Positions 1,143-15,615 of a DNA stretch of 18,074 nucleotides are shown piece after piece. The first letter of the stretch is position 1. Each line of letters begins with the position of its first letter. A program made the position numbers and the translations under genes. Below the pieces are notes generated by a model, which worked only from the letters and a program-made list of their open reading frames with translations, did not search any database and had not been told where the DNA came from. The stretch comes from Promethearchaeota archaeon (lineage in GTDB: Archaea; Asgardarchaeota; Lokiarchaeia; Sigyniarchaeales; SOKP01), in contig JAFGGO010000161.1 of the NCBI GenBank assembly GCA_016930515.1, positions 1 to 18,074 of the forward strand, written 5' to 3'.

Positions 1143-4100
1143 TTAGAAATATTTAATTCGTTTTCTTTTTACCAAATAGATCGATAAGGCACCTAAACTA
1201 ATTGCTAAGAGTAGCGCTGCCATTGTAAAACCAGGAACTCGGTTTTCTTCATTAAATGCTTCTTCGTCGATCGTGATAGCAAATACGAGGTCGATCACTC
1301 CGTTTTCATAAGCCTCCATGAAATCGAGGATGAGAGCACTATCGGTGTTTTCCGTAATCAATGAAGATAATAGATCTTCTGTGACGTCTTCCCAGTCGTG
1401 AGCATATGAATCCCAGACCCATAGTTTAAGCTTGGAAAAGTCTTGTGAAAGGTCAATCGTATCTGGTAATCCAATAGTTACGGTAAGAGAATCGCCACTT
1501 TGGATGCCTGTTACTAGAAAATCACAGTAAAAAACCATTGTGCCATTGCCAATAGTGATACCACCAGGAACATCATTGAATATAGCGAAATACATGTCCA
1601 CTATTCCTGAAGTTTCAAGTACCACACTTGTCGTGATATCGTCAGCAAACGGATTGTTAAAATTGAATGTCGTCGTGCCAGATCTAGATTGATACTCCAT
1701 CAAATATCTGCCGAACATCTCGTATTCTCCAGGATATTCGTGAGAAGGTATCCTACCCACGATTAGTTGAGTAACTCCAGTAAGCGAATTAAAACTCCAG
1801 TCAAAAAACGCCTCCGATGTCGATGATTCGATCCTCAAGTGATCGTTTTCCATTAAGACCACGGTATCAGAACCCGTGAGTGCCATGATAGGCTCGATAA
1901 AGGCGTATAGCGACGCACCTGTAGTTCCTTGTGGGAGCAAGAAAAATTCGGGATTTGGAGAAAGATCCAAGGATGCGTTGAAAGTGAATAAGAAATATTC
2001 GTTCGCCCAACTGATAACTCTCGTACCAAGAGATTGCCAGGACATGGAAGTCACATCCCATCTGAAAATATTAGCTTCTGCTAATCGGAAAGCACACAGA
2101 GAAGCATCGTTGAAAGACAAGTGCATGTCTTGGAGGTTTACAACTTGAATCTCGGTAGTGTTAGAGATCTGGATCATTACCCGTTGGTCCGGATTTCCAT
2201 AGTAATAAGTCTCTCCGGGATTTACGCCCCAAGACATTTCGTTAACGGGATTTGGATCAAATATCTGCCTTCCTTGGAGCTCAATTTCCATTGTCATTAC
2301 TCTCGTATGCAAATCAAACTCGTTAAGAGTCCCATTCGCATAGAAAGTCAAGTTGAGATAATATGATGTTCCATATTCTGACATGTATAGATTATTACCA
2401 CTGATGGTCATATTGTTGAAAGAAGGTAACTCGTATATCGAGCCATAAAACGCCATTAATGCGATTCCTACTGCGCTCAAGTTCAAGCTTCCATATTGAA
2501 CTGGCACGATCGATGGAATCCCCCACGAATAAGGTCCAAGTATCATTGTAAGGGAACCTCCGTTGGTACTGATCTGTCCAAAAGTCATTGGAGGCCATCC
2601 GTTTGGAATTAATCCAGAAATTCCGTCGTGATGCATCCCAGAAGCGTTTACAATAGACCACATTTGAGAGTGATCGTAGATATCTCCTATAAACGTCACG
2701 TTATATGTCGTGAAATCATTGTATGGCATCAATTCGCTTCCATTGCTTACAGTTCCCTGCGTTAAATAGGTATATATATCACCTTGGTTTATAGCCCAAC
2801 TCCATTCTTTTCCAGCACCTAATGCAAAATAAGACACATTTCGGAGTAATCCACCAGTTTGAGAAAGTGGCGTGGTTATGGTGTTTGTTGCAGTATCTCT
2901 AATGAATGCATATTCTGGTGCTGGCATCCACCGTCTTTCTTCCATGCTAAACAAATAAGGCCACAAGTATTCTTCGTTAAATCCATTTAATAATGTCTCA
3001 TCGTATTCGATTGTTAAATTAGCAGAAGAAATAAAGAGGTCATAGCTCGCATATAAATCGAGGTATAGCGGCATCGTTAATATCTCTCCGTAGAAAGGCG
3101 TGAGAACGGGATTAAACGGTAGTACTGCAGAATATATGTCAACGCTATTAGATGTGGTAAGATCCAAGTAAAGTTCCGCACTTCCAAGGCCGTTGTGGTA
3201 AACATTTGAAGGATATAATTGTATTTGAGTTGTAGTTGAAGTGAAAATCGAAGTACAATTCTTTCTGAAGATAACCGACATTGGATTGCCCATATCGTCG
3301 TTTGAGATCATCCATTCGAGAATTCCCGTGGCAATATTATATTTGCCCTTCATTTCTCTTAGGTTTGTAGAGCTGCTAGTACTAAACGAGAATGTTCCAT
3401 CGGGATCAAAAGAATATGTGTCATATTGTTCCTTCATAAACTGATACATAAAGGGTACCAGGACGAATTCCACATCGTCAATTTGGGTATTCTGTGGATA
3501 AAAGAAGAAGTGAGGTCCCTCTTGCTTCTCGTGAATGTTAATTCTATTGTTGGTGTTGAAACCCCTATCAATCAGACCTTCACCAGGACCTTTATCTTCT
3601 ACTTGAATATTTATGTGCGTTCCATTATCATATACATTTTCGATGCGATAATATGTATCCATGGATTTTCCATCCATATCTAGGATTTCAAGTTCTTTAT
3701 CCACCCAAGTTGGGTAATTTGGGTGAAATCCACCAATCGAAAGGTTCAAGTTGCCGTCGATGGACGCGATGGGATAATCTTGGAGTAACATATTACCTTC
3801 CCCCATCAAGACCATTAAATTTACGGGATTCATGTTATTTGCCATTCCTATTAACATGGATGGTGCCACGAGTTCGTATTGTTGATTAGTGACATTCCAA
3901 ATCGATATATCAGCGAATACTTGTTGAAAACATTGCAAGTAAGGAAATCCCCAAGAAGCATATACTGGAGCAAGTGTTGTATTGATATCGATTATCGTGA
4001 TTTTCAACTCGTTGTAATTAATCCCATCACTACCATTGTCATACCATCGGGAGTTTTCTCCGAAATAATAATCGTCTCCTAGCATAAAGTCCCATGAGAC

Positions 4101-4913
4101 TTGGTTAACAAGATCAAGATCAAAAACCCTACGAATTTTGGTCGTAATTTGAATCATTGGGTCAGAAGATTCTCCCAATTTCATCAAGTATTCGGCATCT
4201 ATTGAATCGATTGTTCCATTATCGAAAAAACTTACATTAAGATAATAACCCTCCAAAATGTTTCGAAACGATATCTTGTTTAACATAGGATATACATCGA
4301 GTGATTCAAAAGAATTAATAAAGCCCATTTCGCTATAGATTCCAAGATATGTATCGTTCATTATTTGAGCAATCGTAGAGAGCTCTAAAACAGAAGCATT
4401 CAACGGAACAATTATTGGTAAAGGAGATCTGTAATATCCTATGTAGTGTTCTTGATGTTTTGTATCGTTATATCCAAACATTGCTATTGGAATTTCTTCT
4501 TCGGTCTCGTTGTCCCTGTAAACATCTGTCATATTATACCCAATAAACTGCCCAGAAGTGCAATTCCAATAGCATTCCGTTCCATATATAGCGGATGTGT
4601 TTCCATACGGAGGATAATCAGTAGTTCCGTCTAACGTGATGTTCTTGATCTCGGTGATATTGAGAATTTTTCTTATCTTGTATTGTGTCAGAATTTGGTT
4701 ATTAGATTGGTTTAAAACCGTCGTTTCTTCGTCGTATATTATCTTTGTATCGGGTATTATATCGTCATGCCACGCCCATTGGTTATAAATGCTCGGCTCA
4801 GGAACTGGTGTAGCCGCCACGACCGATGGCGTCATAAAACCAAGAAAAATTCCCGCTGGAAAGAATACGAGAAGAACTAAAAGCAAGCTTTTTTTTATTT
4901 TTGTATTGTTCAT
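1143..4913 (-). CDS. Large cell-surface glycoprotein with signal peptide and PGF-type (archaeosortase-like) C-terminal anchor; internally duplicated
   Basis: 1256 aa. N-terminal KIKK followed by a hydrophobic stretch. C-terminal VPGF + TM helix + KRKRIK. Many N-x-S/T sequons, beta-rich sequence, recurring W-x(3-4)-G[DE]-x-Y-x-[YF] module starts. Confidence 0.82.
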   Translation of the reverse strand: MNNTKIKKSLLLVLLVFFPAGIFLGFMTPSVVAATPVPEPSIYNQWAWHDDIIPDTKIIYDEETTVLNQSNNQILTQYKIRKILNITEIKNITLDGTTDYPPYGNTSAIYGTECYWNCTSGQFIGYNMTDVYRDNETEEEIPIAMFGYNDTKHQEHYIGYYRSPLPIIVPLNASVLELSTIAQIMNDTYLGIYSEMGFINSFESLDVYPMLNKISFRNILEGYYLNVSFFDNGTIDSIDAEYLMKLGESSDPMIQITTKIRRVFDLDLVNQVSWDFMLGDDYYFGENSRWYDNGSDGINYNELKITIIDINTTLAPVYASWGFPYLQCFQQVFADISIWNVTNQQYELVAPSMLIGMANNMNPVNLMVLMGEGNMLLQDYPIASIDGNLNLSIGGFHPNYPTWVDKELEILDMDGKSMDTYYRIENVYDNGTHINIQVEDKGPGEGLIDRGFNTNNRINIHEKQEGPHFFFYPQNTQIDDVEFVLVPFMYQFMKEQYDTYSFDPDGTFSFSTSSSTNLREMKGKYNIATGILEWMISNDDMGNPMSVIFRKNCTSIFTSTTTQIQLYPSNVYHNGLGSAELYLDLTTSNSVDIYSAVLPFNPVLTPFYGEILTMPLYLDLYASYDLFISSANLTIEYDETLLNGFNEEYLWPYLFSMEERRWMPAPEYAFIRDTATNTITTPLSQTGGLLRNVSYFALGAGKEWSWAINQGDIYTYLTQGTVSNGSELMPYNDFTTYNVTFIGDIYDHSQMWSIVNASGMHHDGISGLIPNGWPPMTFGQISTNGGSLTMILGPYSWGIPSIVPVQYGSLNLSAVGIALMAFYGSIYELPSFNNMTISGNNLYMSEYGTSYYLNLTFYANGTLNEFDLHTRVMTMEIELQGRQIFDPNPVNEMSWGVNPGETYYYGNPDQRVMIQISNTTEIQVVNLQDMHLSFNDASLCAFRLAEANIFRWDVTSMSWQSLGTRVISWANEYFLFTFNASLDLSPNPEFFLLPQGTTGASLYAFIEPIMALTGSDTVVLMENDHLRIESSTSEAFFDWSFNSLTGVTQLIVGRIPSHEYPGEYEMFGRYLMEYQSRSGTTTFNFNNPFADDITTSVVLETSGIVDMYFAIFNDVPGGITIGNGTMVFYCDFLVTGIQSGDSLTVTIGLPDTIDLSQDFSKLKLWVWDSYAHDWEDVTEDLLSSLITENTDSALILDFMEAYENGVIDLVFAITIDEEAFNEENRVPGFTMAALLLAISLGALSIYLVKRKRIKYF
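1270..4780 (-). repeat. Protein-level two-fold tandem duplication inside the surface protein (aa about 45-703 vs about 704-1215)
   Basis: Collinear motif pairs: PIIVPLNASVLELS/PSIVPVQYGSLNLS; YYLNVSFFDNGT/YYLNLTFYANGT; RVFDLDLVNQVSW/QIFDPNPVNEMSW; PHFFFYPQNT/PEFFLLPQGT; LTTSNSVDIY/LETSGIVDMY. Confidence 0.7.
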
Positions 4914-10458: not shown

Positions 10459-10509
10459 CTTCCATTATAGTGCGCATATCTTTTTATATGTAAAATTCTT
10501 ACATTTCTT

Positions 10510-11262
10510 ATGGATCTCGAGGAGAAAATAAACCTCGTCGTCGATTGGATAGTTAATTCAAAGCATTTAGTTATTTTTACTGGAGCTGGTATTTCCACCG
10601 ACAGTGGATTACCCGATTATCGAGGCCCAGATGGCGTTTGGACCAGGAGAGATAAAGGACTTCCACCCAAACCCCTAGCTGTACCTTGGGATCAAGTTAA
10701 GCCTAATCAAGCTCATTATTTGATAGTCGATTTGTTAAAAATGGGTAAACTTGAATTCTTGATTTCTCAGAATGTGGACGGATTACATGTTAAATCGGGC
10801 ATCTCTTTCGATAAAATCGCAGAATTACATGGTAACATGTATTTCTTAAAGTGCTTGAATTGCGGTACCAAGTTGACCTTTGAAGAAGCAGGATGGAATA
10901 AAAAAATATGGGGCAACGGATATAGAACAGATCCTGTCAAAGAAGGACAGCCAAAATGTCCTAATTGCACCGGTCGAATCATATCAAGTATAATTAATTT
11001 TGGGGATCCAATGCCCGAAGAGGAGATGATCAAGGCATCGAAATATTCAGAAAAGGCTGATGTCTTTTTTGTAATAGGATCATCGCTCGTCGTTTCTCCT
11101 GCAAATTCGTTCCCGATGATTGCAAAAAGAAATAACGCCAAATTAGTTGTATTAAACGATGGAGAAGTTCCTATTGAAAGGTTTGTAAATATTAGATTCC
11201 ACGACAGAATTGAAGATATTCTCCCCTTGATAGTAGCTAGAGTTAAAGCAAAAATATTTTAA
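10510..11262 (+). CDS. sir2: NAD-dependent protein deacylase, sirtuin family (SIRT6/7 class IV-like)
   Basis: TGAGISTDSGLPDYRG, SQNVDGLH, catalytic ELHGN, zinc motif CLNC...CPNC, GSSL. Confidence 0.93.
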   Translation: MDLEEKINLVVDWIVNSKHLVIFTGAGISTDSGLPDYRGPDGVWTRRDKGLPPKPLAVPWDQVKPNQAHYLIVDLLKMGKLEFLISQNVDGLHVKSGISFDKIAELHGNMYFLKCLNCGTKLTFEEAGWNKKIWGNGYRTDPVKEGQPKCPNCTGRIISSIINFGDPMPEEEMIKASKYSEKADVFFVIGSSLVVSPANSFPMIAKRNNAKLVVLNDGEVPIERFVNIRFHDRIEDILPLIVARVKAKIF

Positions 11263-12681: not shown

Positions 12682-14340
12682 TTATTTAATTTTTCCATAA
12701 ATATCCTTCTCTCGGTCGAGTTCTTTAAGCAGTAATCTCCCTTCCTTATTTGACAATGATAGATTCATTTCGCTATTCCTGCTCAGTGAACCTGTAAAGA
12801 TGGGTTCATCCTCCACATATACCACGATATTTTGGCTAGCATACATTAGAGGCGCCTTAATCACGATTTTATTAGATTTAACGGATAAATCGAGTTCAAT
12901 CTTGTGCTTTTTAGATTTTCGTTCTTTTTTATAACCTCTTGTTTCTCTATCTCGCGGAATATTCTTTGAATGAACGGGAGCGATGGGATATATCACGATA
13001 TCTTGTCCAAAAGAATAAATTTCGTACTCAAGGTTTCCCGTCATGTAATCTCTTACCTCAACAACAGGTCTTGCAAGGTCCTTGTCTTGAAATCCAGAAG
13101 GAACTTTTACGGTCATTTTAAGAACGAGAACCGTGGCAACAGCTCCACCTTTTATAAAAATGATCGTATCAATTATAGATGGAAGCATCCCAAGTTCCAC
13201 GCGGCCGATAAAGCGTTGAATTGCGTCAATTGCCGATGAACTGTGAACAACACCAACCATACCGGTTCCAGAAAGCCTAAAGTCGCTATATATTTCAAAA
13301 TCCTTCGTCGTGCGAACTTCATCAAAGATCGTGAAGTCGGGCCTTACAAGGAGTAGTATATCGGCAGAATTTTCCAGGCTTCCCTCTAATTTCGTGTATT
13401 GGGTAATTTCAGGTCTAACTTGCAAGTCCCTCACGCTTTCTAGAGTCTTCACAACTTTATCGTGTTCTAAATAAAAGTTTGCTAATGCTGCGGAAAATGT
13501 TGATTTACCAGCACCAGGAGCGCCTGCCACGAGAATTCCTTCGGCAATTTCGAGTCTCTCCATGAGAGTTCTGTTGAGTCCGTAATCGGAAAGTTTCAAG
13601 TTCACAAGTGGTCTTACCGCCGTGATTTCAACATCGTTGGAAAACGGAGGTCTCGTTATAACAATTCGAAATTCTCGAAGTTGCACAACAACAGCACCTT
13701 CCTTTTCGATTTCCATAAACGAATGTTCATCTTCCCTTACATTCTCAATAATTTCGAGAGCGATTTCTTCGATCAACTTTGACGAAATAGGTTCCTCTGA
13801 TACTTGTTCTAAATGCCAATCTCCAGGACCTCCTTTCTTGGCGTGGGGAGGAAGGTTTCTCTTGAGGTGGACGCTCATTGTCTTATCGTCGAAATAATCC
13901 AATAGTTTTAAAGATAAGGGCTCTATAATTTTGGTATCTTTTTTTTCCCAAGCGAACATGACCTCTAGACCTTCAAATATGCCAACATCTCCTTGAATTC
14001 TATCGGCAGTTATCAGAATTGCATCGTTTTCAAGTGCAGATTTTCTAATAAGTGCGTCAAGTTCTCCACCAGGACTCATCTTGATTTCTTCCCTTGTAGG
14101 CCGTTTGCCCACGATTCTCAAGATAATATCACCCTTGTCGTGCCATTCTCTTAATTGTTTAAGCACATTAAGTCCGTAAAAACCTATCTCTTTTTGAATA
14201 TTAGTTCGATACTCAATTTCTGCAACAACTATGTTTGAGATGAAGATTTCGGGTTTATCTCCTAAATCTCCGTCTTCTATAAGGTTCAATATTTGACCGT
14301 TAAAAATGATTGAAGTATCGCACGCAAATTTATCTGTCAT
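12682..14340 (-). CDS. PINA-family ATPase (PIN domain + PilT/VirB11-like ATPase)
   Basis: N-terminal PIN domain (CDTS, AEIE, GELDALIR, TAD). Walker A GAPGAGKST and Walker B TIFDEVR. Family motifs TLESVRDLQ, ITQY, LLLVRPD, AIQRFIGRVELG and DLARPVVEVRD. Confidence 0.92.
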   Translation of the reverse strand: MTDKFACDTSIIFNGQILNLIEDGDLGDKPEIFISNIVVAEIEYRTNIQKEIGFYGLNVLKQLREWHDKGDIILRIVGKRPTREEIKMSPGGELDALIRKSALENDAILITADRIQGDVGIFEGLEVMFAWEKKDTKIIEPLSLKLLDYFDDKTMSVHLKRNLPPHAKKGGPGDWHLEQVSEEPISSKLIEEIALEIIENVREDEHSFMEIEKEGAVVVQLREFRIVITRPPFSNDVEITAVRPLVNLKLSDYGLNRTLMERLEIAEGILVAGAPGAGKSTFSAALANFYLEHDKVVKTLESVRDLQVRPEITQYTKLEGSLENSADILLLVRPDFTIFDEVRTTKDFEIYSDFRLSGTGMVGVVHSSSAIDAIQRFIGRVELGMLPSIIDTIIFIKGGAVATVLVLKMTVKVPSGFQDKDLARPVVEVRDYMTGNLEYEIYSFGQDIVIYPIAPVHSKNIPRDRETRGYKKERKSKKHKIELDLSVKSNKIVIKAPLMYASQNIVVYVEDEPIFTGSLSRNSEMNLSLSNKEGRLLLKELDREKDIYGKIK

Positions 14341-14341
14341 T

Positions 14342-14947
14342 TTAAGACTCTAATTTTTCTAATTTATTCATAATTTGAAATTTTTTTACACTGTAATATA
14401 TTGGCTTGCTAAGCCTATCTACAGTAGCTACTATGAGGTCTTTTCGTGAACTCATCGCAACTCGAGAAATTTTATCTAGATCTCTCAATTCTATAGGATC
14501 ACCCTCAAAAACAGGATATATCAAGAATTTCGCAGAATCGTTTTCAACATTAGCTCCTCTCTTATATACTCTAAAGTCAATACCTTCCCCATACCCGGTT
14601 CTTACTACGTAACCTCTTTTTCTCAAATCCATATAAATGATATATTTTTGCCAGAGTCTCTCGACGTAGCGAGTGAAATGTTCTAAAATGGTTTCAAAAT
14701 TGAAAAGATCTCCATTCTTATCGTTATTCTTCCATAAAAGAATTCTACATCGCTCGATTAATAATAATGTTTCCATAGGCTCTAGTACCAATATCTCGTC
14801 TGGTTGTCCTTCTTTTTGAATGTTTCCAATATATGAATTTTTATAGAACTCCTCTATAGCTTCCCTGTTGGAAATAATTACCTTGTCGTCTTTTATTACT
14901 CCTTCGAATTGAAGCTTTTCTGGCTTTTCAGGTGATTTATCTGACAT
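14342..14947 (-). CDS. endA: tRNA-intron (splicing) endonuclease subunit, probably the structural non-catalytic beta subunit
   Basis: LEPMETLLL, YMDLRKRGYVVRTG, DFRVYKRG, RVAMSSRKDLIVATVD...IYY. The catalytic His position reads Ser (NDSA). Confidence 0.85.
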   Translation of the reverse strand: MSDKSPEKPEKLQFEGVIKDDKVIISNREAIEEFYKNSYIGNIQKEGQPDEILVLEPMETLLLIERCRILLWKNNDKNGDLFNFETILEHFTRYVERLWQKYIIYMDLRKRGYVVRTGYGEGIDFRVYKRGANVENDSAKFLIYPVFEGDPIELRDLDKISRVAMSSRKDLIVATVDRLSKPIYYSVKKFQIMNKLEKLES

Positions 14948-15045
14948 TTCTAATAATTTATCATCGCGACTCCCTAAAGAACTTAACGATATCTAATAGC
15001 AAACATGAAACCTTAATTTGACATTATTCATTTTATCCTATAATC

Positions 15046-15615
15046 ATGAATGATTTTTTAGAACAACTAAAACTAGAAACTAAGGGAGCAACTAAGGTTG
15101 CCTTTGTTGGAATTGGAGAAGAAAAGATGACCGACGATGCCGTTGGACTTTATATTATAACACAACTTTTAAACAATAAAAGCAATAAATTCTTTTTCAT
15201 GAACGCTGGAGTTGATTTAATGGCGAGAGTAGACGAGATAATAGACTTTAATCCGTCTCACTTGATCTTGATTGATACTTGCACTTATAATAGTCCTCCA
15301 GGTACCGTCGTTATTCTAAAAAGAAGTAATATGCATGAATATATTCCGATATCGTCCCATACAATCCCAGTTCATATTGTACTAGATTTGATAGTCGAAA
15401 AGCTTCCCACTATAAAAACATTTATGATTGGAATTGTGCCTGAAAGCCTTGACGGATTCGTTGAGCTTGAATTATTCAAAAAAGGAGAAATATCCATTGA
15501 CGAGCTAAACGAAAACGAAGATTTACCTTTCTGGGACATTCAGTTAACACCTACCATTGAGAATGTTGCCAACAATTTAATAGAAATTATTAAACAATTA
15601 ATGGAATCGCTCTAG
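15046..15615 (+). CDS. hycI: Hydrogenase maturation protease-like protein (HycI type, peptidase A31)
   Basis: VAFVGIG...TDDAVG, NAG, HLILID, PPG, SSHTIP, IGIVP and QLTP follow the HycI/HyaD fold pattern. Confidence 0.78.
   Translation: MNDFLEQLKLETKGATKVAFVGIGEEKMTDDAVGLYIITQLLNNKSNKFFFMNAGVDLMARVDEIIDFNPSHLILIDTCTYNSPPGTVVILKRSNMHEYIPISSHTIPVHIVLDLIVEKLPTIKTFMIGIVPESLDGFVELELFKKGEISIDELNENEDLPFWDIQLTPTIENVANNLIEIIKQLMESL

Follow-up and report, generated by a model that had tools for sequence, protein, structure and literature searches.

A short-module sirtuin in a Promethearchaeota genome, a prokaryotic relative of SIRT6 and SIRT7

The DNA considered here, referred to as the window, is the whole 18,074-nucleotide stretch of contig JAFGGO010000161.1 (assembly GCA_016930515.1) of a Promethearchaeota archaeon, and the gene in question lies at window positions 10510..11262 on the + strand, stop codon included. 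The product of this open reading frame (ORF), designated P0001 and used as the query in all comparisons, is a complete 250-residue sirtuin of class IV-like type: it belongs to a prokaryotic sister assemblage of SIRT6 and SIRT7 and is an ortholog of neither. Its architecture and modelled fold are SIRT6-like, with a shortened cofactor-loop/helical module. Judged by its conserved residues, P0001 is most likely an active lysine deacetylase that requires nicotinamide adenine dinucleotide (NAD+), from a prokaryotic short-module family that would be the nearest relative of class IV and would have separated from it before the duplication that gave SIRT6 and SIRT7. By sequence it is probably the counterpart in this genome of LoSIR2b, a sirtuin of Ca. 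Lokiarchaeum ossiferum. Part of this picture is already known, namely the link between Asgard sirtuins and SIRT7 (2022) and the deacetylation of histone tails by the Loki counterpart (a 2026 preprint). To this the window adds an ortholog, a tailed histone in the same genome as a candidate substrate, and another tree, in which neither an Asgard nor a bacterial donor lineage for the eukaryotic enzymes is rejected.

The gene, its shortened module and its fold

The P0001 gene opens with an ATG codon, runs for 250 codons without an internal stop and closes with TAA. The sole ORF that overlaps it is a 124-residue antisense frame, and nothing supports that frame. Membership of the sirtuin family is clear from the Pfam SIR2 model (PF02146), to which the protein scores 113.6 bits (E = 1.3e-32), far above the cut-off of 24. 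The CobB-type equivalogs of NCBIfam, including NF040867, NF001752 and NF010736, behave differently: all seven score under their curated cut-offs (best 199.4 bits against 320), and each match is split into two stretches, with the break at the position of the missing module. A match to Pfam Zn_ribbon_3 (E = 0.0056, below the cut-off) was discarded as the sirtuin zinc module itself.

All the sirtuin hallmarks (GAG.S, QN.D, the catalytic His and four zinc-binding Cys) are present in P0001, and they were assigned from the alignment to SIRT6 and from a 119-row alignment of relatives, which served both to judge residue invariance and to build the AlphaFold2 model. The NAD-binding motif GAGIS (residues 25-29, 10582..10596, +) is followed by SGLPDYRGPDGVWT, and together they pair with G52-S56, G60, D63, R65 and W71 of SIRT6 in the phmmer alignment. 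The catalytic core extends from QNVD (Q87, N88, D90) to ELHG with the catalytic His107 (10768..10830, +) and aligns to N114 and H133 of SIRT6. It is followed by the zinc-binding module, Cys115-x2-Cys118-x31-Cys150-x2-Cys153 (10852..10968, +). The residues invariant among the 119 rows (G25, G27, S29, H69, N88, D90, H107, G108, C115, C118, C150, and G190) all occur in P0001, as does C153, which is nearly invariant. Since the residues aligned to S56, G60, D63, R65, N114, and H133 of SIRT6 are all conserved, the sequence gives no sign of an inactive enzyme.

The feature that sets P0001 apart from canonical sirtuins lies between GVWT (residues 42-45) and KPNQAH (residues 64-69). The preliminary description, made from the DNA alone, had counted 18 residues between these motifs, and the translation gives exactly this number. 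This linker (residues 46-63, 10645..10698, +) stands in place of a canonical helical module that is about 16 residues longer, as judged from the translation, the motif distances and the model. The distance from GAG to QN[VI]D is 62 residues in P0001 and 78 in P0380, the second, canonical sirtuin of the same genome. The preliminary description had called the module missing; relative to the canonical archaeal paralog it is indeed shortened, as it is in SIRT6, but it is not wholly absent, and the AlphaFold2 model (mean pLDDT, a predicted local distance difference test score, 96.4) retains a single short helix at residues 43-48 within residues 33-66. The P0001 strings quoted in that description (RGPDGVWT, GLPPK, FLISQNVDGLHVKSG, DKIAELHGNMY, NFGD, and the N-terminal LEEKI..WI..SKH) are all found in the protein, and the SIRT6 strings that it cited reappear in the phmmer alignment to SIRT6 chains of the Protein Data Bank (PDB). 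The spacing from the catalytic-core Asn to His, 19 residues in P0001 and in SIRT6, was tried as a class marker and dropped, as canonical paralogs themselves vary (17, 18, and 22).

Comparisons with proteins of known structure place human SIRT6 closest to P0001 in both sequence and fold, which bears out the SIRT6-like architecture given in the preliminary description. In a phmmer search of PDB chains, ten human SIRT6 sequences lead the list (166 bits, E = 7.5e-48, 34-35% identity), and the alignment is continuous from query residues 3-242 to SIRT6 residues 30-266, with a lone one-residue gap in the GVWT..P.Q.H stretch. Sir2-Af2 (136 bits), Sir2Tm (126 bits), Sir2-Af1 (116 bits), and SIRT7 (106 bits) score lower, and a Sirt4-type chain (90 bits), SIRT3 (81 bits), SIRT5 (77 bits), and SIRT1 (64 bits) lower still, the class I and III eukaryotic sirtuins spanning 62-81 bits. 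When the model was compared with PDB structures by Foldseek, places 1-32 were all occupied by human SIRT6, the better chains having query TM-scores (TMq) of 0.82-0.86 and root-mean-square deviations (rmsd) of 2.5-2.8 Å. Sir2Tm and Sir2-Af2 come next, with TMq of 0.69-0.74 and rmsd of about 6 Å. The canonical paralog P0380, encoded on another contig of the assembly (C113), serves as an internal control, since it scores 221 bits to Sir2-Af2 against 90 to SIRT6.

Placement among prokaryotic and eukaryotic sirtuins

Of the 98 sirtuin domains in the tree, 19 are compact metagenomic or Asgard sequences, 18 come from named prokaryotes and have the short module, 43 belong to eukaryotic class IV, and 18 are canonical, among them E. 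coli CobB and P0380. It was calculated with IQ-TREE under LG+C20+F+G4 with posterior mean site frequencies (PMSF), with ultrafast bootstrap and the SH-like approximate likelihood-ratio test (SH-aLRT) as support values. The 250 columns used are those filled in at least 30% of rows; most of the module's own columns were among those dropped. References for class I, for class II, and for animal SIRT7 are missing from the tree, and the PDB bit scores given above stand in for them; a search for class I references among longer relatives of P0380 yielded just 9 fused prokaryotic proteins and one protein of a protist. The short-module prokaryotes group with eukaryotic class IV (81 rows together, support 99/98), apart from the canonical sirtuins of Af2 or CobB type. 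Within this group the eukaryotic sequences are monophyletic (100/100) on a stem of 0.62, and every prokaryotic short-module sequence falls outside them. P0001 itself is one of eight members of a tight clade (100/99), in which the named ones are labelled Loki, Hermod, Hod, or Odin. The relationships among this clade, the other Asgard clades (Frey, Hel, and Heimdall-type), the bacterial clades and the eukaryotes amount to a polytomy, in which the Asgard and bacterial clades are interleaved. Closest to the eukaryotic stem are the metagenomic proteins P0246, P0250, P0253, and P0346.

Constrained topologies were compared by the approximately unbiased (AU) test. Grouping the Loki clade with the archaeal canonical sirtuins is rejected (log-likelihood difference 126.6, p-AU 0.00026), and the maximum-likelihood (ML) tree does not place P0001 within class III or U. 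Grouping the Loki clade with all canonical rows is not rejected (difference 16.4, p-AU 0.18), a constraint that is looser because it is satisfied merely by the Loki clade being the deepest short-module branch. The groups for both of these Loki-canonical constraints were chosen after the tree had been seen. Two further constraints bear on the origin of the eukaryotic enzymes, and neither is rejected: the Loki clade with eukaryotes (difference 11.2, p-AU 0.23) and the Chloroflexi/Delta clade with eukaryotes (difference 11.1, p-AU 0.16).

These results bear directly on the suggestion, made in the preliminary description, that P0001 represents an archaeal ancestor of the eukaryotic enzymes. A direct vertical ancestor type, inherited by eukaryotes from the Asgard host and with the bacterial copies as later transfers, would agree with the wide occurrence of sirtuins in the phylum, with clear orthologs in several families, with the joint grouping of the P0001 clade and eukaryotic class IV at 99/98, with the survival of the Loki-eukaryote constraint in the AU test and with published trees in which an Asgard clade is sister to SIRT7 (bioRxiv 10.1101/2021.11.30.470311). 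However, the branches form a polytomy, two metagenomic proteins stand as ML sister to the eukaryotes with support of just 59/51, a bacterial grouping with eukaryotes survives the same test, the Asgard and bacterial clades are interleaved, and the eukaryotic stem is long. The ancestor claim is thus not borne out as it was put, with the P0001 clade outside a monophyletic eukaryotic group, and we regard direct Asgard ancestry as doubtful. The family is common to Asgard archaea and several bacterial phyla, so the eukaryotic enzymes may, but need not, derive from the Asgard host.

The distribution of the family reveals the same breadth. Among 201 genomes sampled from the host's phylum, 174 contain a sirtuin match at E<=1e-20, and clear orthologs of P0001 (full-length identity of 45% or more) lie mostly in the host's own family and several others. 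When one genome per prokaryotic species was scanned, the short module (60-62 residues from GAG to QN.D) was found in Prometh-, Hel-, and Freyarchaeota and, at 42-55% identity to P0001, in bacterial metagenome-assembled genomes (MAGs) of Dehalococcoidia/Chloroflexi, Deltaproteobacteria/Syntrophaceae, Rubrobacter/Actinomycetota, and Pyrinomonadaceae (Acidobacteriota). The Dehalococcoidia/Chloroflexi sequences include some on contigs of 0.64 and 1.77 Mb, which are the solid bacterial cases. The two closest matches with a bacterial label, short-module sirtuins 53-55% identical to P0001, come from MAGs labelled 'Enterobacterales' (L009, a 25.8-kb contig) and 'Proteobacteria' (L010, a 2.4-kb contig); these labels may be binning errors, and the two are therefore not counted as evidence for bacteria. 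Matches of 34-41% identity (Alphaproteobacteria, Thermoproteus, Acidilobus, Thaumarchaeota, and other Dehalococcoidia) are all canonical, with 77-80 residues. The view that class IV is eukaryotic, cited in the preliminary description, is therefore not supported, since Asgard archaea commonly carry the short-module form and some bacterial MAGs carry it too, in part on contigs of 0.6-1.8 Mb.

Among 1.84 billion cluster representatives, searched exhaustively, HMMER returned 477 matches below 1e-30: a handful of compact Asgard-like clusters, followed mostly by proteins of 300-870 residues, those with names being eukaryotic SIRT6-like sirtuins (animals, Chlamydomonas, Willaertia, Pelomyxa, Hemimastix, Synchytrium, and others). 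The best characterised match of P0001 is a human protein, which might hint at a recent transfer from a eukaryote to an Asgard archaeon or at eukaryotic contamination of the MAG. This is exceedingly improbable and has effectively been refuted, as P0001 lies outside the 100/100 eukaryotic clade, its orthologs occur in many Asgard genomes with a downstream gene block in shared order in three relatives (described below), and the gene is intron-free among archaeal neighbours that include EndA and HycI. The 120 database proteins closest to P0001 are 63-87% identical to it, and all those among them that bear a name belong to MAGs of Promethearchaeota (Lokiarchaeota), Hermod-, Hod-, or Odinarchaeota. 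The host is thus an archaeon, as the preliminary description had supposed, and more precisely an Asgard.

Several members of the wider family are fused to further regions or domains. P0243 (408 residues; L098:1758-5227, GCA_004196295.1 contig SDBS01001526.1) ends in 250 residues that form an Asgard-type short-module sirtuin, and its N-terminal 165 residues give a weak sub-threshold match to Profilin (E = 0.002, 18.6 bits where 25 is the cut-off). This protein is part of a three-gene insert (a 240-residue SIR2 protein, a 494-residue protein and P0243) found between ribosomal S3/L29 and L22/S19 on 5 contigs. The metagenomic proteins P0122-P0127 (469-537 residues) join a Chloroflexi-type short-module sirtuin to an N-terminal region of about 240-290 residues with a weak, coiled-coil-like match to V-ATPase_G_2 (E = 2e-4, below the cut-off). 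Among protist and metagenomic SIRT6-like sirtuins (e.g., P0146, P0158, P0177; P0130-P0132; P0128, P0133), fusions to YEATS (PF03366, an acyl-lysine reader), zf-UBP (PF02148), or CAP C-terminal (PF08603) domains are observed, and these are called reader-eraser fusions.

Predicted activity, substrates and gene neighbourhood

The closest experimental reference for P0001 comes from Ca. Lokiarchaeum ossiferum B35, in which three sirtuins have been described. One of them, LoSIR2b (GNAMCCOK_01652, SIR2b clade), carries out NAD-dependent deacetylation of Loki histone-tail peptides in vitro; it is the paralog most active on these tails, and its deacetylase activity is reported to be robust and comparable to that of SIRT1. 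Yeast without sir2 regains silencing when given SIR2 catalytic domains from Loki and Hod that are joined to the yeast targeting domain, and a model of LoSIR2b has been compared with the SIRT6-nucleosome structure (bioRxiv 10.64898/2026.07.02.735847). P0001 is identical to LoSIR2b at 133 of 238 aligned positions (~56%, counted by hand against the sequence in the preprint's supplementary table). LoSIR2b itself was looked for among the proteins collected and in eight further Asgard loci, and it occurs in neither. If P0001 follows standard sirtuin chemistry, acetyl-lysine would attack C1' of NAD+ and nicotinamide would leave, His107 would act as the general base, and the products would be O-acetyl-ADP-ribose and free lysine.

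A plausible substrate is encoded in the same assembly (4.0 Mb in 190 contigs, 94% complete). The host genome encodes five histone-fold proteins, one of which (G000:C159:14776-15051; locus L093:1408-1683, +) is a 92-residue protein with about 27 N-terminal residues ahead of the histone fold that are rich in Lys, Pro, and Ala (MAKKPAAKPKPAAKKKPAAPKAKK...). It resembles the tailed Loki histone of the preprint (bioRxiv 10.64898/2026.07.02.735847) and is a natural candidate substrate for P0001. Whether the Lys-rich N-terminal tails of Asgard histones would be the main substrate is, by analogy with LoSIR2b, an even call. Several points weigh against this interpretation of P0001 as a class IV-like enzyme that may act on histones. 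The histone link comes from one preprint on a protein that is about 56% identical; the same family occurs in histone-free bacteria, so that histone tails cannot serve it as a general substrate; the class IV placement draws on a tree without bona fide sequences of class I, class II, or animal SIRT7; and the neighbours of the gene (PHP-domain, permease, PIN-ATPase, EndA, and HycI), syntenic solely in close relatives, hint at no function.

The occurrence of short-module sirtuins, 42-55% identical to P0001, in MAGs of Dehalococcoidia, Deltaproteobacteria, Actinomycetota, and Acidobacteriota without histones is also what would be expected if P0001 were a general housekeeping deacetylase in a CobB-like role, acting mainly on metabolic enzymes or Alba-type chromatin proteins instead of histone tails, with its SIRT6-like shape uninformative on chromatin. 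There are no chromatin genes in the neighbourhood of P0001, and its best NCBIfam matches, though sub-threshold, are to CobB-type deacylase models, which points in the same direction. On the other hand, every CobB equivalog stays under its cut-off (e.g., 199 against 320 bits), P0380, the genome's other sirtuin and of canonical Af2 type (221 bits to Af2), could fill such a role, and LoSIR2b is the Loki paralog most active on histone tails in the preprint. A housekeeping role is somewhat less likely.

The resemblance to human SIRT6 could also be taken to mean that P0001 acts chiefly in removing long-chain (myristoyl) groups or in mono-ADP-ribosyl transfer and is a weak deacetylase. Its overall fold and the conservation of the residues at SIRT6 S56, G60, D63, and R65 would be compatible with such activities, and several close homologs carry the JGI label 'mono-ADP-ribosyltransferase sirtuin 6', which is, however, an automatic KEGG Orthology (KO) label. 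In the work on 3ZG6, the N-terminal segment of SIRT6 reportedly helps to form the fatty-acyl channel, and P0001, starting at about SIRT6 residue 28, is without this segment. It also has the canonical FGD motif instead of the WED of SIRT6, and LoSIR2b is a robust deacetylase with activity comparable to that of SIRT1. A predominantly long-chain or ADP-ribosylating enzyme is consequently improbable, and we retain the prediction that P0001 is a deacetylase.

SIRT6 and SIRT7 are chromatin-bound regulators of eukaryotic genome stability and ageing, and since they regulate eukaryotic chromatin, the origin of class IV bears on the rise of histone-based regulation. The presence of a compact SIRT6-like enzyme and tailed histones in one Asgard genome is in keeping with an acetyl-lysine eraser that existed before eukaryotes, a picture already drawn by Grau-Bove et al. 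(2022) and in the 2026 Asgard chromatin preprint. In its strongest form, this picture holds that the Asgard short-module sirtuins are the direct vertical source of SIRT6 and SIRT7 and were already erasing acetyl marks from histone tails before eukaryogenesis, the bacterial copies being secondary transfers. We consider this rather unlikely; the idea is already in the literature and, if it is true, P0001 is one more member.

The gene itself may have its own archaeal promoter, to judge by an A/T-rich, TATA-like element (TTTTTATAT, 10481..10489, +) about 21-29 nucleotides upstream of the ATG, from which a leaderless or short-leader mRNA would be produced. Upstream lie a PHP-domain gene, separated by a 51-nucleotide gap, and an amino-acid permease. 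An operon or functional link with the PHP-domain gene was considered and rejected, as PHP adjoins the sirtuin in just one close relative (L007), which is ordinary local synteny. Downstream, at window positions 12682-15615, is a block encoding a PIN-domain/T2SSE-type ATPase fusion (552 residues), EndA (tRNA-splicing endonuclease), and a HycI-type hydrogenase maturation protease, whose place beside the sirtuin is conserved in just three close relatives (Promethearchaeota MAGs, L005-L007). In one of these (L005, MAG DZ2S.378), two short-module sirtuins stand in tandem beside the same block (1631-2503 and 2590-3354; phmmer E = 9e-114 and 1e-117 to P0001), and this pair is a recent tandem duplication. 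Elsewhere in the window, a 1256-residue ORF (1143-4913, -) matches none of the Pfam families at E<=0.01.

Comparison with known sirtuins

Sir2-Af2 (PDB 1MA3) and P0380 share with P0001 the PF02146 domain, a similar length and the same catalytic and zinc residues. They differ in the helical module, which is about 16 residues longer (78 against 62 from GAG to QN.D). The bacterial short-module sirtuins are closer, having a module of 60-62 residues, 42-55% identity to P0001 and a place in the same 99/98 clade. Those of Chloroflexi type differ in having a zinc-module insert shorter by about 20 residues (231-241 residues in the whole protein) and in belonging to histone-free hosts. The NCBI CDD model cd01410 reportedly already counts 'several bacterial homologs' within class IV.

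Human SIRT6 (PDB 3K35, 3PKI, 6XV6, and 8G57) has the same shortened module and near-identical motifs (GAGIST, RGP.GVWT, SQNVDGLH, and AELHGNM). Unlike P0001, which is a bare 250-residue core beginning at about SIRT6 residue 28 and closing with the Rossmann fold, it carries an N-terminal extension of about 27 residues and a C-terminal tail. It further differs in having WED in place of FGD and a Cx10C zinc-loop insert between C166 and C177, where P0001 has a plain C150-x2-C153; in the alignment, C177 pairs with C153 and C166 stands opposite T140. The loop between C166 and C177 of SIRT6 carries the arginine anchor for the nucleosome acidic patch. SIRT7 (PDB 9GMK) also has a short module, but scores lower against P0001 than SIRT6 does (106 against 166 bits). 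Its zinc site is a plain CxxC...CxxC, as in P0001, and an FG[DE] motif is probably common to the two, with NFGD in P0001 and, according to the preliminary description, HFGE in SIRT7. In published trees, an Asgard clade of Loki and Heimdall sequences is sister to SIRT7 (Grau-Bove et al., 2022; bioRxiv 10.1101/2021.11.30.470311), and this is very probably the same clade as that of P0001.

LoSIR2b has been assayed, whereas P0001 is known from its sequence and model. The two belong to different species, and by level of identity LoSIR2b is as distant from P0001 as the Hel- and Heimdall-type members are. The other two Loki sirtuins, LoSIR2a and LoSIR2c, have the long module, and P0380 resembles LoSIR2c. 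Like P0001, LoSIR2b is a compact single domain from a Loki-type Asgard, with a short linker from GVWT to P-N-x-x-H, a QNVD/ELHG core (N95 and H114 in LoSIR2b) and a CxxC...CxxC zinc module with a WG.GYRT insert.

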